Position numbers: made by a program. From an uncultured Spirochaetota bacterium (GTDB taxonomy: Bacteria > Spirochaetota > Spirochaetia > SZUA-6 > Fen-1364), in the NCBI GenBank assembly GCA_963820525.1, contig CAWGAA010000001.1:1056001-1120000 (forward strand): a stretch of DNA of 64,000 nt, written 5' to 3'. Position 1 is the first letter of the stretch; every line of letters starts with the position of its first letter. Below, in pieces: positions 33,001-39,000 of this stretch.

Positions 33001-36000
33001 TTTATGGAGTTCAATTCTCTTCCCACAAAGGAGCGGATCAAAAAAGTGCTGGAAGCGGTCAATTCGCGCGGCATCAAGGCTCAATTGGTGGAGACGAAGG
33101 AAGAAGCGCTGGAAAAAGTGAGAAGCATGATTCCTGGCGGAGCCGACGTCATGACGGGCGCCTCGATCACGCTCCAGCAGATCGGCTTCGAGGATCTTCT
33201 CGTCTCGGGCAAGCATCCCTGGCATAATTTGAAGGACGGTATTCTAGCCGAAAAAGACATGGCGAAGCAGGCGACGCTTCGAAAGCAGGGCACGATGTCG
33301 GAGTACTTCTTGGGCAGCGTGCACGCAATCGCTGAAACGGGAGAGATTGTCTTCGCCAGCGCCACGGGAAGCCAGCTTCCGGCCTACGCTTTTTCCAGCA
33401 GCAATGTGATCTGGGTGGCCGGAGCCCAAAAAATCACGTCATCCCTGGAAATGGCGATCAAGAGGATACGTGAATATATCGTGCCCCTCGAGGATCAGCA
33501 CATGAAACAGCTTTACGGACCGCAAGCCGCCACCATGATCGGAAAAATGCTGGTATTCGAGCGCGAATCACCCATGCTTCATCGCAACGTGAACCTCATT
33601 ATGGTCAATGAGGTATTGGGTTTTTAAAGGGAGAGGAATCAGAACATGAAAATCGCTCTAGTCGGGGCATCGGGATTCGTCGGAGGATTCATATTGAAAG
33701 AGGCCCTCAGCCGCGGTCACGCGGTAACGGCAATATGCCGTCATCCGGAAAAATTGACCGGGCAGCCGAACCTCACCATTATAATGGGCGATGTTCTGGA
33801 TGAGGGCGGATTCGCCAAAAGCATTTCAGGGCATGACATTGTCATCAGCGCTTTCAATCCCGGATGGAGCAATCCGGAGATTTACAGCGACTACGTGAAG
33901 GGAATGCACGCGATCATCAAAGGGGTCAAGAAGTCCCGCGTAAAACGGCTCCTGGTAGTGGGCGGCGCAGGGAGCCTCGAAATCAAGCCGGGTCTTCAGC
34001 TGGTTGATACCCCTGAGTTTCCCGCCCAATTCAAAGATGGCGCTCTGGGTGCCAGGGAAGCGCTGAACATTCTCAAAAAAGAAACGGAGCTGGATTGGAC
34101 TTTGGTATCCCCATCGATCACGCTGCAGCCGGGGGAACGTACCGGCAAATTCAGATTGGGGACCGATCAATTGCTGTTTGACGGCAAAGGGGAAAGCAAG
34201 ATTTCAACACAGGACCTGGCAATGGCGATCCTGAATGAAGCCGAAAAGCCCCAATTCATCAGGAAGCGGTTTACAGTCGGCTATTGAAATTGCTGCCTCC
34301 GCACGGACCCGATCCCGAAGAGAAAAATCCGGGTGTGCCCCGTACGCGGGGCGCCCGGTTTCGATCAAAGCACCACTCATGTCCGCCCTCGTGCGGGTCC
34401 CTCCAGCTTGAACCCTGGCAGCGGATGAAACATAATCGGCCGCATAGAAGACGTTGACCGGCCCATCATCTCGGGAAGCGACTCGCCCATACCTGCCGGA
34501 TACTTCCGGATAATCCTTGTCCGGCAGGGCGCCGTGAGACTTGCGCAGGGAGGGGAGCGGAGGATCGTTCTGCCCCGAAGCGCCATCTTCATTCCTGCCG
34601 GCGTGTCGCGATGCATCGAGGCCGGAGGCGGCGCGGAGCTCGCGCAGGTGGCCTTCTGCAAAAGCGTCCTGGACCCGGAGATGCTGGGAGAGGCCGCGGA
34701 CGAGCTTTTTGCCATGCTTGGCTTGGGGCGGAACCCGGCGGCCCCTGAACCTTTAATCCGCGTCGCCCGCCTCCCACCTACCGCCTTCGACGAGGCGTGC
34801 GCTCTGCTGAAGCGTATCGAGGCAGAGCGCGGACAGAAACGGCCGGGAAGAGAGATCATGCAGAGGCTCGCCCTGGTGGAGCTCCTCGTTGTCGTTTATC
34901 GCTGCTTCCAATCAGGGCAGGAGGCACAAAACACCGGTCCCGCACGCTTCAGGATCGCGGAGGCGGTTGGCTACATCAGGGACCGCTACGCGGAGGAGCT
35001 TTCTCTACCTGAGCTCGCTTCCCGCTTCGGGCTCAACCCCAGCTACTTCTCGCGCCTCTTCACCAGACATACCGGCCTGCACGTCTTCGAGTATCTGAAC
35101 AGGATCCGCATCCAGAAAAGCTGCCTGCTGCTGAAGCGCTCTTCCATGAGCATTTTACAGATCGCGTTCTCCGTGGGCTATAACAACCTCTCCCATTTCA
35201 ACAGGTACTTTCCGGCGGATCATGGGAATGAGCCCGCGCGAGTACAGAAATCGAAGCGTAAAGTAAAAAAAGTATCAGTTTAATCCCGAATGGTGCCGGA
35301 ATCCGCATCCCGAAAAGCCCATACTTTCAATCAAGGAGGCGCCATGGAAAAGCTTGAACAATTCCTGGAGGAATCCCCGATCGCAATACGGGTTACGCTC
35401 CCGACCAAAATCATCGTGCATGAGCTGAAGCTCAGTTACGCGGCCTTCGCGCCTTCCAACGGAAAAGTGTGCGAGCTGGAGGTGGGCGGCCGGCGCATCG
35501 CCAGGGGCAGAATCGTGCGCAGACGGGGTGAGTACTTTTTCAAGGTAGGAGAGATGGCGAAAGGAGGCGCGCAATGAAGCTGGGTCACCTGAAAGAAATC
35601 GGGGTTGAATTGAGAGTCGAGCTGGGCAGGGCGACGCGCAGCCTCGCCGACGTGGCGGGGATCAGCGAAGGAACAATCATTGAGCTGCACAAGCTTGCAG
35701 GCGAGCCGGTGGATCTCCTTGTCGCGGGTGAGCTCATCGCAAAAGGTGAAGTGGTGGTGATAGACGAGAGCTTCGGGATCCGCGTCACCGAGATGGTGGA
35801 AAAGGAGAAGGAGGCCGGAGAATGACCGACGCCCTGCACCAGATCAAGATCTACGATTTCAAAAGGCCGGACAAGTTTTCCAAAGACCAGATACGCACCG
35901 TCTCCATCATGCACGAGACCTTTGCGCGCCTGACAACCACCGCCCTATCGGGGCAACTGAGAAGCCTTTCATCCGTTCATGTGGCTTCGGTGGACCAGCT

Positions 36001-39000
36001 CACCTATGAGGAGTTCATCCGCTCCATTCCCAACCCGGCCACGATCGCTATTCTCTCCCTGTATCCGCTGAAGGGCTCAGCGCTGCTGGAGATCGACCCG
36101 GCAATCACCTTCTCCATCATCGACAGGCTGTTCGGCGGACAGGGGGACGGATGGAAGCTTTCGCGGGAGATCACCGGCATCGAAAGCTCTGTGATCGAGG
36201 GCAGCGTCGTCCAGATGCTCGGCGCCCTCCCCGAGTCCTGGAAAAACGTGATCGACCTGAAACCCGGGCTGACGCGCATAGAGACCAATCCCCAGTTCGC
36301 TCAGGTCGTGCCGCCGCATGAGATGATCGTGCTCGTGTCCCTTTCCGTGGAAATGGGAGAGGCGCGGGGAATGATGAACCTCGCCCTTCCCTACCTCACC
36401 ATCGAGCCGATCATCCATAAGCTTTCAGCGCAATACATGTACTCAGTGTTCAGGAGGAAGGGCAGTCCCCAGATGGCCAGGGCTTCCTTCAAGCTGGATC
36501 TTCCCGTCGAAGTTTATCTTGAAGGGGCAAGGCTTTCTCTGCGCGATCTGGGTGGGTTGAAGAGAGGCAGCCTCGTGAAGATTTCCGGTTACCGGCAGGG
36601 CAAGGCGTTCCTCCGCATGGGCGGGCGCACCCTCTTCGGCCTGAAGGCCCGGCCCGGCGGGAGGGGAAAGCCTGCAACCTACGAGGTCGTGAGCGGGGTT
36701 TCAAAAGAAAGCATACCCTTCCTCGAGCCCATAGAGAAAATAGGCGAACCCTCGGAGCTGGAAACCATAGAGGCGGGGATGCGCGAGGCTTTGCTGGAGC
36801 TGGGCTCCAAGATAAGCGAGTCCCTTGCCGGCATGAAAAACTCCATCGGGGCGCTGCAGAAGAAGCAGGACGAGATGGCAGACCAGCTGGCTTTCGGAGC
36901 GCAGGAACAGGAAGCCCCCGATATGAAGAGAGGCGCGGAGCATGCAAGACCGTTCGACTTCCTTGGCCGGGCGGACCCTGAGCACTTCCTGAGCGTCATC
37001 CAGCACGAGCACCCGCAACTGATAGCGCTGATCCTCTCCTATCTCGAGCCGCAGAGGGCTTCCGCCATCCTCGGAAGTCTCCCTGCGGAGCTTCAGCCCG
37101 ACGTGGCAAAGAGGATTGCCGGCATGGGCCGTACCCATCCCGAGGTCCTCCGCGAGGTGGAGCGGGCATTGGAGAAGCAGCTCTCCGTGCTTTCCTCGGA
37201 GGACTACGCCGAGGCGGGCGGCGTGGAGGGCCTGGTCGAGATCCTCAACATGGCGAATCGCTCCACGGAGAGATTCGTGGTCGACTCGCTGGAGAAGAAG
37301 GACGCGAAGCTGGCCGAAGAGATCAAGCGGAGGATGTTCGTCTTCGAGGACATCGTGCTTCTGGAAAAAAAGGACGTGGAGAAAGTGGTGAAGAAGGCGG
37401 AGACGGACGTCCTGCTCCGCGCCATGAAAGCCGCTCCCGATGAAGTAAAGACCTTCATCTGGGGATGTCTGCCGCCTGAGGACGTGGAGAGGCTCACGCT
37501 GCGATTGAAAGAGCTGGGTCCGGTCCGGCTGCACGAGGTGGAGCGTGCCCAGCAGAGGGTTGTCGGCGTGATTCGGGAGATGGAAGAGGCTGGAGAGATC
37601 GTCGTGGCCCGAGCGGGTGAGCAGACGAAGATCGTGGAATAGAGACGCAGGGAATGGACCATCCCCTATTGACTGGGGTGGTGCCCGTGGCGCACGGCGA
37701 GCACACGCATGCCATGATCGCCGGATCGAAGCTCGTCACCTATCCCACGGGGGGACACCTCATGGCCGGCCGGCTAGAAGGCTTTCTCTCCACTGCGAGG
37801 CAAGCCGCAGGGCTGCGCCCCCGGCTCATCCGCCGGAGTAGCTGATCCGATAGATGGCTCCGGCCGCATCATCTGAAACCAGCAGGGCGCCGTCCGGCAT
37901 GACCTGTACGTCAACCGGCCTGCCCCATGCGGTTCGGTTGACAAGCCAGCCCTCGGCAAAGGGCTGGTAGGAAATCGCCTTTCCGCCACTCAACTTCACC
38001 AGGCTGACACGATATCCAATGGGCGTGGTCCTGTTCCATGAGCCGTGCTCGGCGATGAAGATCTGGTTCCTGTACTCCGCGGGGAACATCCCGCCGGTAT
38101 AGAATCTCATCCCGAGCGCGGCCACGTGGGGCCCCAAGAGGATAGCGGGCGGAGTGAAAAGGGATAAATCCTTGTTCTGGCCCAGCTCGGGGTCATGGAT
38201 ATAGCCGGCATGGACATAGGGATAGCCGAAATGGAGCCCCGGCTGCGGGGCCTTGTTCAGCTCGTCAGGAGGCTGGTTGTCCCCCAGCCAGTCCCTGCCG
38301 TTGTCCGTAAACCACAACTCCCCGGTGGCTGGATCCCAGTCGAATCCGACGGTGTTTCGTATTCCCCGCGCAAAGATCTCCATGTCCGAGCCGTCGGGCT
38401 TCATCCGCGTGATGGAGGCGTATGGGTCGGGGCGCTCGCAGATGTTGCACGGCGCGCCGATTGGCACGTAGAGAAGCCCGTCGGGCCCGAAGCGGATGAA
38501 CTTCCAGCCGTGCGTTTCGTTGGTGGGCAGACGGTCCGTAACCACCACGGGCGCGGGAGGAGATCCGAGTGAGCTTTCTATCCTGTCGTAGCGGAGGATG
38601 CGGCTAACCTCTGCCACGTACAGAGACCCGTCCCGGAATGCGACTCCATTGGGCATGTGGAGGCCGCTGGCGATGGTGAGCACCTTTCGGGGTCCCGATG
38701 CCGGGCGCACGGCATTCGGGATGGCATAGACCTTCCCTATGTCACGGGTGCCGATAAAAAGGGTCCCGCTCTCGCCAAGAGCCAGGGAGCGCGCGCCGGG
38801 AACATTCGGCGCGAATACCTCGATCTTGAAGCCAGGCGGGAGGCGGATTTGGTCCAGGCGAGGATCTCCCGGGCGGAAGGCCGCCCCGCAGCCAAAGAGG
38901 AAAAGAGACAACAAGAGCATCGAAAAGATTCGCGGTTCTGCTCGCTCGAAGGACTTTCTCTTCATAAAGGAAATATACGTGTTGATCTGTGGGAGAGGAT

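Follow-up and report, generated by a model that had tools for sequence, protein, structure and literature searches.

In the flagellar switch, the GGXG motif of FliM contacts the middle domain of FliG (FliG_M), and rings of FliG, FliM and FliN generally need FliF as a template. Natural single chains combining a FliM/CheC-like domain with SpoA domains are known from SctQ of injectisomes, and a laboratory FliM–FliN fusion of Salmonella reportedly shows that joined rotor neighbours can assemble. The same is outlined for covalently joined FliF and FliG in Salmonella gene fusions, in an account that also covers the exchange of FliM and FliN in working motors (PMC7355467). The roles of the FliG residues that pair with the stator (R281, D288 and D289) are set out in PMC6079164, and the FliG1 and FliG2 proteins of B. 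burgdorferi are presented in PMC7225975 as a case of spirochaetes using duplicated switch proteins for different roles. Our literature searches found no published description of a cassette in which FliM is fused to the middle and C-terminal domains of FliG (FliM–FliG(MC)); as far as these searches reach, a preliminary description that called this conserved family undescribed was right. Here we report such a cassette in a 64,000-nucleotide stretch (the window) of the genome of an uncultured Spirochaetota bacterium. Judged from its sequence, it is probably an AraC-controlled operon for a pared-down version of the flagellar switch ring, in which a single chain unites FliM with two-thirds of FliG.

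The cassette occupies window positions 34534-37642 on the forward strand and consists of four genes, which encode an AraC-type regulator, a 77-aa SpoA/FliN-like protein, an 83-aa SpoA/FliN-type protein and a FliM::FliG (middle plus C-terminal) fusion of 606 aa (Table 1). The last three ORFs are linked in series by 4-base overlaps. The preliminary description had extended the module over 34534..37845; the four genes stand, but the 63-aa ORF at 37654-37845 has no family match and is left out. ORF calls, neighbours and the placement of the canonical switch genes bear out a separate four-gene module outside flagellar operons: fliM (C1:607967), fliY/N (C1:606546), fliG (C1:617790) and a second fliG (C3:112431) all lie at a distance. 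Inspection of the neighbouring families likewise places the cassette outside flagellar gene clusters, among genes for MarR, a hydrolase, a glyoxalase, a LUD-domain protein, an NAD-binding protein, a GSDH-like protein and tRNA-Asn and a TOTE gene.

Table 1. Features of the switch cassette, in window positions.
Feature	Position	Strand	Basis or details
AraC/XylS-type regulator gene	34429..35283	+	homologous codons upstream to 34429; HTH_18, HTH_AraC
AraC-type regulator ORF	34534-35283	+	249 aa, table 11, GTG start
Putative operator/promoter of three-gene operon	35265..35343	+	direct repeats, -10-like, RBS
g00951 ORF	35290/35344-35577	+	95 or 77 aa depending on start
g00951, divergent SpoA/FliN-like 77-aa protein, cassette-specific	35344..35577	+	hhalign, family alignment
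g00952 ORF	35574-35825	+	83 aa
g00952, FliN-type SpoA 83-aa protein	35574..35825	+	PF01052, TIGR02480
FliM::FliG(MC) fusion gene	35822-37642	+	606 aa; 630-codon open frame without stop
FliM middle domain, residues 11-201	35852..36424	+	PF02154 E 1e-71; GGQG at 105-108
Probable FliM_C-like SpoA segment, residues ~230-291	36509..36694	+	TIGR01397 alignment to residue 283; AF2 beta strands
Linker, one long predicted helix, residues 312-357	36755..36892	+	AF2 model; low-confidence flanks 294-314, 358-373
FliG middle domain, residues 386-459	36977..37198	+	PF14841 E 2.2e-27; EHPQ at 396-399
FliG C-terminal domain, residues 488-594	37283..37603	+	PF01706 E 1.5e-32; MFVFED at 505-510

The first half of the fusion matches the NCBIfam fliM model TIGR01397 over residues 6-283 with 259 bits. 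In a Foldseek comparison, the predicted FliM_M model superposes on T. maritima FliM_M (4fhr_A) with a TM score of 0.93 and an rmsd of 1.5, and G105 and G108 of its GGQG motif are invariant in 24 aligned sequences. Beta strands at residues 230-291 (pLDDT 74-80 in the AF2 model) suggest the FliM_C-like segment; PF01052 itself gave no match in the fusion. This half had been taken for a complete FliM, which proved incorrect: the TIGR01397 match begins only at profile position 31, and alignment with relatives shows that the N-terminal peptide that binds CheY-P (LSQxEIDxLL) has been deleted. The peptide, as LSQDxIDxL, is present in the genome's own FliM (MTEVLSQDEIDQLL) and in the closest relatives of the window fusion, including that at locus L158, which begins MNDALSQDAIDQLL...KIKIYDF. 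Among 118 relatives (those of the 120 best database matches that measure 560-680 aa), a CheY-type N-peptide is found in a minority, 9 by a strict regular expression and about 25 by eye, which connects the family with chemotaxis and the biology of the motor.

The second half matches the fliG model TIGR00207 with 245 bits, with residues 372-602 covering profile positions 106-335 only. FliG_N, the domain that binds the FliF C-terminus, was absent from the fusion in Pfam, NCBIfam and linker-only searches, as claimed for a single FliM–FliG(MC) chain. The suggestion that a remnant of FliG_N persists in the linker did not survive: a weak match to PF14842 at residues 398-478 falls on FliG_M, the linker alone matched neither FliG_N nor any other family, and none of six linkers tested matched FliG_N at E<=10. 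The E/H/P/Q residues and the equivalent of R160 are retained in 113-118 of the 118 relatives, and the FliG_C region scores 204 bits against T. maritima FliG (1lkv). FliG_C had been described as torque-generating; the domain is there, but its primary stator-pairing charges are not. Alignment to E. coli FliG identifies residues 550-570 as the equivalent of the torque helix, with E553, L560 and R561 in place of R281, D288 and D289, and these charges are not conserved across the 118 relatives either: the residue at 281 is most often A (36) or E (29) and that at 288 most often A (43 of 118), while 61 of the 118 have R at 289. Secondary residues are kept (K264 in 112 and R297 in 104 of the 118), and the genome's own FliG has R, E and D at the three stator positions. 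Because both MotA paralogues of this genome retain R90 and E98, E553 and R561 of the fusion are like-charged to their expected partners. The FliM–FliG interface motifs (GGXG and EHPQ..R) and the MFXF hinge are kept, and FliG_N, the MS-ring anchor, and the primary stator charges are lost.

Such a combination, in which binding surfaces on FliM_M, FliG_M and FliN persist without those for anchoring and torque, would also suit a soluble decoy that forms no ring and titrates proteins docking on the switch, thereby buffering signalling or assembly. Its targets might be CheY-P in members with the N-peptide, FliH and the export ATPase on the SpoA patch, or brake, clutch or placement factors on FliG_C or FliM. 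Although the peptide-bearing minority and the inducible regulator attached to the cassette (AraC gene at 13 of 14 genome loci) are in keeping with this idea, we consider it improbable: most members, the window copy included, lack the CheY peptide, and a decoy would have no use for a whole FliG_C fold with invariant or near-invariant hinge motifs.

The two small proteins are probable partners of the same type. The 83-aa protein matches FliMN_C (PF01052) with E 3.9e-21 and 75 bits (cut-off 23.8), and fliN TIGR02480 with 88 bits against a curated cut-off of 84.05. The 77-aa protein has no match in Pfam or NCBIfam; in a profile comparison with the FliN-like family, however, hhalign aligns the 77-aa family from end to end (probability 93.7%, E 1.9e-7), and its best PDB matches, though weak (E 0.14), are T. 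maritima FliN (1yab/1o6a). Its AF2 model has a pLDDT of 62 and is confident in the C-terminal hairpins only. The gene is single-copy in the genome, and its family counts 165 representatives at E<=1e-3 among 1.84 billion.

Pfam places HTH_18, the domain of the two helix-turn-helix units of AraC/XylS proteins, at residues 161-239 of the regulator (E 1.4e-20), and 13 of 13 cassette regulators contain it. Upstream of the 77-aa gene, a conserved direct repeat looks like a candidate operator of this regulator. Its first copy, R1 (~35265-35278), reads AAAAAAGTATCAG and the second, R2 (~35290-35302, 21 bp after R1), reads ATGGTGCCGGAAT; a -10-like CATACT (35320-35325) and the RBS AAGGAGG (35333-35339, 7 bases before ATG 35344) follow. 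The repeats are conserved 5′ of the 77-aa gene across cassette loci, also where the AraC gene lies downstream. A post hoc regular expression matched 17 of 26 upstream regions compared with 0.4 of 26 in shuffles. In the 5.05-Mb genome the degenerate pattern has a single match, at the cassette. Of five other carrier genomes tested, only two have the strict pattern at the cassette, and elsewhere in these five genomes it matches 0-5 times.

In the window copy the regulator carries a +1 frameshift, with one extra base at ~35208-35213. Three-frame translation and alignment with 12 cassette-linked relatives show that frame 2 reads FRRIMGMSPREYRNRSVK to a stop, the family consensus, and the unshifted frame stops at TAA 35264-35266; the shifted tail replaces the last conserved helix. 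Codons homologous to those of the relatives continue upstream of the ORF to 34429, with no ATG, GTG or TTG along them or where the intact 267-aa regulator of L158 begins. Two further genes have in-frame deletions: the 77-aa protein lacks 9-11 residues inside its SpoA fold relative to its homologues, and the fusion lacks 24 residues relative to L158, the CheY-type peptide among them. These lesions raise the question of whether the cassette is decaying in this genome while the family functions elsewhere. We regard this as quite unlikely, given that the three structural ORFs are intact, their coupled overlaps, RBS and putative operator are kept, and the window fusion retains every invariant column of alignment A1. 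Peptide loss is moreover the majority state of the family, and the frameshift, which falls on a short run of T and C, may have arisen in the assembly; the nearby gene at 41020 also looks split. Compared with L158, the closest relative (70-79% amino-acid identity), dN/dS is 0.19-0.32, and 0.25-0.32 for the structural genes; the cassette is under purifying selection.

Of 60 other genomes of the order, 8 have an open frame of fusion length, as do at least 4 of 400 genomes from elsewhere in the phylum Spirochaetota. These figures give a scale to the earlier term widespread, and database searches have so far returned fusion matches only in spirochaete-labelled records. The three genomes of family f12 gave no match whatsoever to the fusion query. 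In the four listed phylum carriers and genome G000 the matches outnumber the fusion, as they would if these genomes have canonical switch genes too. The cassette recurs in the same order at 14 genome and 13 metagenome loci. Linkage is tighter than previously claimed: at the 14 genome loci with room for neighbours, the fusion always has the FliN-like gene next to it, and the 77-aa and AraC genes are each adjacent at 13. Flanks differ from locus to locus and, at 14 other loci, are non-motility genes, single cases excepted. In a tree, the fusions form one group on long branches, apart from 103 canonical spirochaete FliM sequences, and the cassette evolves much faster than canonical FliM.

These patterns bear on whether the product might assemble autonomously into something like a C ring. 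The fusion would then self-polymerize with its two SpoA partners into a ring, arc or filament through FliG ARM stacking, FliM lateral contacts and a SpoA base, independently of MS ring and stators; the re-modelled FliG_C helix would bind a non-stator partner, in a role other than driving or tuning flagellar rotation. A self-sufficient cassette with its own FliN-type pair, a 77-aa family confined to the cassette, unrelated flanks, up to three copies or variants in genome G424 (L134, L135 and L136), the separate long-branched group and the arginine at the D289 position are all compatible with this, and an operator pattern unique in the genome suggests that the regulator is local, serves this cassette and is no part of the flagellar regulon. 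We nevertheless consider it somewhat unlikely. Comparison of the flanks revealed no membrane anchor, partner or further conserved neighbour, the family is seen only in a flagellated phylum and was not found in the f12 genomes, some members keep the CheY-type peptide, and the rings would probably need FliF as a template.

Our tentative preference, ahead of an autonomous assembly, is for a motor-modulating switch unit that is inducible and blind to the stator. We propose that the operon product is a complete but uncoupled switch-ring block: FliM_M, FliM_C, a long helix, FliG_M and FliG_C with two SpoA partners. The AraC regulator would bind the direct repeat, which overlaps the putative -35 region, and turn the operon on in response to a ligand. 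The product could then mix into the C ring through the FliM/FliN-type exchange of working motors or, alternatively, compete for canonical FliG, FliM and FliN. Because its FliG_C surface would be unable to pair with MotA, it would make no torque but alter what the motor delivers, acting as a conditional brake or decoupler. Several observations run counter to a motor modulator. The FliN-type pair and fast evolution fit a self-contained complex better than a canonical-ring subunit; with FliM_M and FliG_M in one chain, their interface may be satisfied in cis, leaving none for canonical partners; and without FliG_N the fusion cannot occupy the FliG position. The arginine at position 289, a new and partly conserved residue, may reflect a new partner more than a plain loss; the operator pattern in its strict form is patchy among carriers and was drawn from the same loci; and the regulator is frameshifted here.

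Among the nearest known systems is the flagellar C ring (Salmonella 8umd/8umx, T. maritima 4fhr). Its FliM_M, FliG_M, FliG_C and FliN types and probably a FliM_C-like SpoA are found in the cassette, together with its GGXG and EHPQ..R interface motifs, MFXF hinge and Gly-Gly linker, and the two halves of the fusion share 60% and 59% identity with FliM and FliG, respectively, of the same genome. The cassette differs in joining FliM and FliG in a single chain, in lacking FliG_N, the primary stator charges and (in the window copy) the CheY peptide, and in having its own SpoA pair, its own AraC regulator and a non-flagellar location. The Salmonella laboratory fusions are mutants that replace the normal genes and keep all anchoring and torque surfaces, whereas the cassette fusion is a natural extra paralogue with a FliM_C-to-FliG_M junction and with surfaces lost. 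Like B. burgdorferi, this genome has two full-length fliG genes; FliG1 and FliG2, however, are full-length and unfused. FliY of Bacillus, Thermotoga and spirochaetes resembles the fusion as a natural single chain of a FliM/CheC-like domain and SpoA domains, and Foldseek also relates the fusion's FliM_M model to FliY and CheC folds, but FliY and SctQ are not known to carry FliG domains and are encoded in flagellar or secretion operons. Also related is the split variant at L136, from the same order, which pairs a FliM_M-only protein with a (2 x SpoA)-FliG_M-FliG_C protein, with no AraC or 77-aa gene detected beside it. Like the cassette, it is an orphan switch-like module with FliG(MC) fused to a C-ring base component; unlike it, the junction runs from SpoA to FliG and FliM is separate.

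The 77-aa, 83-aa and 606-aa genes of the cassette overlap by 4 bases each and so form one operon, preceded by the gene of an AraC-type regulator. The preliminary description had reported a separate cassette carrying a FliM–FliG(MC) fusion, with the canonical switch genes elsewhere; this was borne out by the open reading frames (ORFs), Pfam, NCBIfam and the gene inventory. NCBIfam placed a fliM equivalog on residues 6–283 of the 606-aa protein and a fliG equivalog on residues 372–602, corresponding to profile positions 106–335. An AlphaFold2 model built from a 24-sequence alignment (pLDDT 76.8, pTM 0.51) gives the order FliM_M, a beta-rich segment (230–291), a single long helix (312–357), FliG_M and FliG_C; the low pTM means that the mutual placement of these domains is not fixed by the model. 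Its FliM_M superimposes on that of Thermotoga maritima FliM with a TM score of 0.93 (Foldseek). The canonical fliM and fliY/N of this 5.05-Mb, four-contig genome lie near C1:607 kb and fliG at C1:618 kb, with a second canonical fliG at C3:112 kb. The genome also contains a 401-aa orphan switch-like ORF (C3 ~911.7–912.9 kb, − strand; L169 5743–6948) in which a weak FliM start accompanies two stretches of FliMN_C, with a PAS-GGDEF gene ~1 kb away.

Cassette genes and downstream features in the window
Feature	Position	Strand	Domains and remarks
AraC-type regulator gene	34534–35283	+	HTH_18 (Pfam)
77-aa gene	ATG at 35344; longest ORF from 35290	+	divergent SpoA reading
83-aa gene	35574–35825	+	FliMN_C (Pfam); fliN above curated cut-off (NCBIfam)
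606-aa gene	35822–37642	+	FliM 11–201, FliG_M 386–459, FliG_C 488–594 (Pfam)
tRNA-Asn	39125–39198
TOTE primase ORF	39641–41023		PF22548 (4e-95)
ResIII fragment, 257 aa	41020–41793		overlapping frame

Neither Pfam nor NCBIfam matches the 77-aa protein. A profile of 14 members of its family aligned along its entire length with that of the 83-aa FliN-like family (hhalign 93.7%, E 1.9e-7). Among solved structures the best matches were to T. maritima FliN, at E 0.14 only. The protein thus reads as a very divergent SpoA domain; its AlphaFold2 model is of low confidence (pLDDT 62). The family is specific to the cassette, given its one copy in the genome, its few representatives among 1.84 billion database clusters (165 at E ≤ 1e-3, 109 at ≤ 1e-10) and the same gene order, as far as the contigs extend, in 13/13 metagenome loci. 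Profile positions 7–42 also matched 12 separate stretches of a 3862-aa database protein (P0142), a repeat protein sharing the N-terminal motif.

We placed the four window proteins on 17 genome loci, 16 of them distinct (L056 and L132 are one contig). The 83-aa gene adjoins the fusion in 14/14 fusion loci with upstream DNA and 13 of these also have an adjacent 77-aa gene (it was not detected in L142); the AraC gene is adjacent in 13/14, upstream in nine and downstream in four, the L056 contig being cut. L144 breaks off inside the fusion. Thirteen metagenome loci retrieved with the 77-aa family have an identical gene order as far as their contigs extend: wherever there is room, the FliN-like gene directly follows the 77-aa gene (12/12) and the fusion comes next (11/11), and the AraC gene lies upstream in 11/13, none being detected in such upstream DNA as L155 and L159 provide, although locus counts are not all independent because L162 and L152 are near-duplicates of L131 and L139. 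Among 74 flanking ORFs of the genome loci there was no recurring family and no further conserved neighbour. The cassette is conserved and self-contained. Some flanks carry transposase, integrase or toxin–antitoxin genes; those in the window are unrelated enzymes, with a tRNA-Asn and a TOTE conflict-system gene 1.5–2 kb downstream. A frameshift may have split this TOTE gene, whose primase ORF is followed by a ResIII fragment in an overlapping frame.

Several variants of this arrangement were seen. One genome (G424) has two ordinary fusion cassettes (L134, L135) and a split variant (L136; C42, 6348–8800), in which a 298-aa FliM_M-only ORF precedes one of 533 aa that combines two SpoA stretches with FliG_M and FliG_C; neither an AraC gene nor a 77-aa gene was detected beside it. 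One lineage (L139, 1356–3143, and the database protein P0117) has most of its FliN-like gene joined in frame to the fusion; the resulting FliN–FliM–FliG chain of 595 aa lacks the last strand of its SpoA domain, probably through deletion. About 3.4 kb downstream of the L137 cassette, an ORF of 247 aa (6977–7720), whose sole domain is FliG_C, lies beside a histidine kinase gene.

A direct repeat common to the cassette loci lies just past the unshifted AraC stop codon and in every case in front of the 77-aa gene, including loci in which the AraC gene is downstream (for example, L134 and L143). Its first copy (R1, ~AAAAwAGTrTC) is followed 19–22 bp later by the second (R2, ~AGTGyyrGAwT), then by a −10-like hexamer ~17 bp beyond R2 and a strong ribosome-binding site. 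A regular expression for the repeat, written after viewing the sequences, matched 17/26 upstream regions versus 0.4/26 in shuffles. Genome-wide, a degenerate pattern has a single match, at 35271–35302 of the window, and a reversed control gave 0 matches. Among five other carrier genomes, the strict pattern was found at the cassette in two (the sole match in G406, one of six in G420), only away from the cassette in G241, and not in G429 or G413, where the repeats differ in 1–2 letters; on these sequences it is too narrow for divergent members. A scan for consensus promoters and terminators gave nothing above chance, and a look-up of RNA runs for this DNA returned none. The spacing of R1 and R2 and the −35 overlap fit an AraC-type activator site, which we treat as putative. 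With its own regulator and a recognizable putative operator, the cassette opens the inducing signal to experimental search.

The window copy differs in several places from its closest relative, the metagenome locus L158. One extra base within ~35208–35213 shifts the frame of the regulator and replaces its conserved ...FRRIMxMSPREYR end, still legible in frame 2; this could be an assembly error. There is no ATG, GTG or TTG at the L158 start position of the regulator, although the upstream codons are nonetheless homologous. The 77-aa protein lacks 9–11 residues inside the SpoA fold and the fusion lacks 24 N-terminal residues; apart from this, all three structural ORFs are intact. In pairwise comparison with L158, the fusion has a dN/dS of 0.32 (342 codons), the 83-aa gene 0.25, the 77-aa gene 0.28 and the body of the regulator 0.19. 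That the window copy is in decay we consider improbable.

We compared the fusion with canonical switch proteins, using for residue counts the 118 relatives of 560–680 aa among the best 120 matches (two were excluded for length). GGQG of FliM_M and the MFVFED hinge are kept in the fusion, as are, across relatives, EHPQ and the R160 equivalent of FliG_M (113–118/118) and the equivalents of K264 (112/118) and R297 (104/118). FliG_N is absent: the remnant suspected in the linker was not recovered, as 0/6 linkers tested alone match FliG_N and the weak PF14842 match falls on FliG_M. The primary stator-pairing residues are also lost. R281, D288 and D289 of Escherichia coli FliG, whose roles in stator pairing are described in PMC6079164, correspond to E553, L560 and R561. 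Among the relatives, position 281 is mostly A (36), E (29), S (11), D (11) or G (10), position 288 A (43), K (15) or S (13), and position 289 R (61), D (10), A (9) or E (9); canonical FliG of the same genome has R/E/D. Both MotA paralogues of this genome keep R90 and E98, which excludes a charge-swapped MotA matching E553 and R561 and leaves no compensating stator in the genome.

A second stator set in the genome (C3:569457–573222; L150 5458–9222) encodes a 265-aa MotA-like and a 247-aa MotB-like protein, directly preceded by a 710-aa ORF whose C-terminal end weakly resembles FliG_C (PF01706, E 3e-4). Co-occurrence of this set and its 710-aa neighbour with the cassette was excluded, as relatives of the 710-aa protein are present in only 2/60 genomes of the order, neither of them cassette-bearing.

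The CheY-type N-terminal peptide is missing from the window fusion, the start of which differs both from its closest relatives (MNDALSQDAIDQLL...) and from FliM of the same genome (MTEVLSQDEIDQLL). This peptide is a minority state in the family, found in 9/118 relatives by a strict regular expression and ~25 by eye. Many distant members without it share the N-terminal motif ~KGSEIIGG..(F/L)....EYK(V/L)K (P0050, P0057, P0067, P0083, P0087 and others).

The taxon labels of the fusion loci, of two named database matches and of the ESM Atlas cluster (130 members, phylum known for 47) all point to Spirochaetota; a cluster look-up of 10 proteins gave a name for one and a taxon for none. A search with the FliG half revealed frames of fusion length in 8/60 further genomes of the order (G403, G406, G413, G419, G420, G424, G429 and G430; that of G419 is cut). 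Full-length matches of 33–43% identity occur in at least 4 of 400 other genomes evenly sampled from the phylum (G057, G077, G241 and G288), a lower bound as there were 823 weaker matches besides those listed. When genome contigs were searched with the fusion alignment, 77/80 loci were ordinary spirochaete fliM and three were fusions (L009, L020 and L056). The two halves of the window fusion are 60% and 59% identical to FliM and FliG of the same genome. In a FastTree phylogeny of the FliM part, a fully supported branch splits 103 canonical spirochaete FliM from 55 fusions and a single E. coli outgroup, and fusion branches are much longer than canonical ones. The fusions may have a single origin, with the rooting resting on one distant outgroup.

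Together, these data provide good support for the cassette as an operon that is under the control of a regulator and encodes a complete protomer of the switch ring, and for a predicted lack in this protomer of FliF anchoring, MotA pairing and, in the window copy, CheY-P uptake on the usual peptide. That such a protein acts as a soluble decoy seems to us a poor prospect. We tentatively favour, at less than even odds, a role at the flagellar motor: once the regulator is active, the fusion would meet the motor and, by mixed assembly or competition, alter its output. This role is favoured by the confinement of the family to a flagellated phylum, the retention of its contact surfaces for canonical FliG and FliM, the CheY peptide kept in some members, and the exchange of FliM and FliN in working motors, as reported in PMC7355467. 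Somewhat less likely, in our view, is autonomous assembly into a free-standing, C-ring-like polymer independent of MS ring and stator, in which parts of the flagellar switch would take on a second use as a cytoplasmic scaffold or switch induced by a ligand, and the re-modelled FliG_C helix would grip a new partner. Speaking for such a polymer are the cassette's own SpoA pair, its fast evolution, the several copies found in a single genome and the semi-conserved arginine that about half of the family has at the D289 position. If real, the polymer would be descended from the switch complex but no longer flagellar.

FliM and FliG(MC) in a single natural chain, with dedicated FliN-type partners, constitute a ready-made switch unit of fixed stoichiometry that could serve structural work on the FliM–FliG interface and the CW/CCW hinge. 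With a role at the motor, the cassette may be a new inducible modulator made of rotor parts, unlike known clutch and brake proteins; alternatively, it may exemplify the recruitment of switch proteins to a use outside the flagellum. If true, either would broaden the view of how motor parts evolve. Databases annotate relatives of the fusion as 'FliM' or 'FliM/FliG', and a full-text literature search, thin in subscription journals, found no natural FliM–FliG fusion. It returned only engineered fusions, namely FliF–FliG (PMC7355467), and the switch paralogues FliG1 and FliG2 of Borrelia (PMC7225975).
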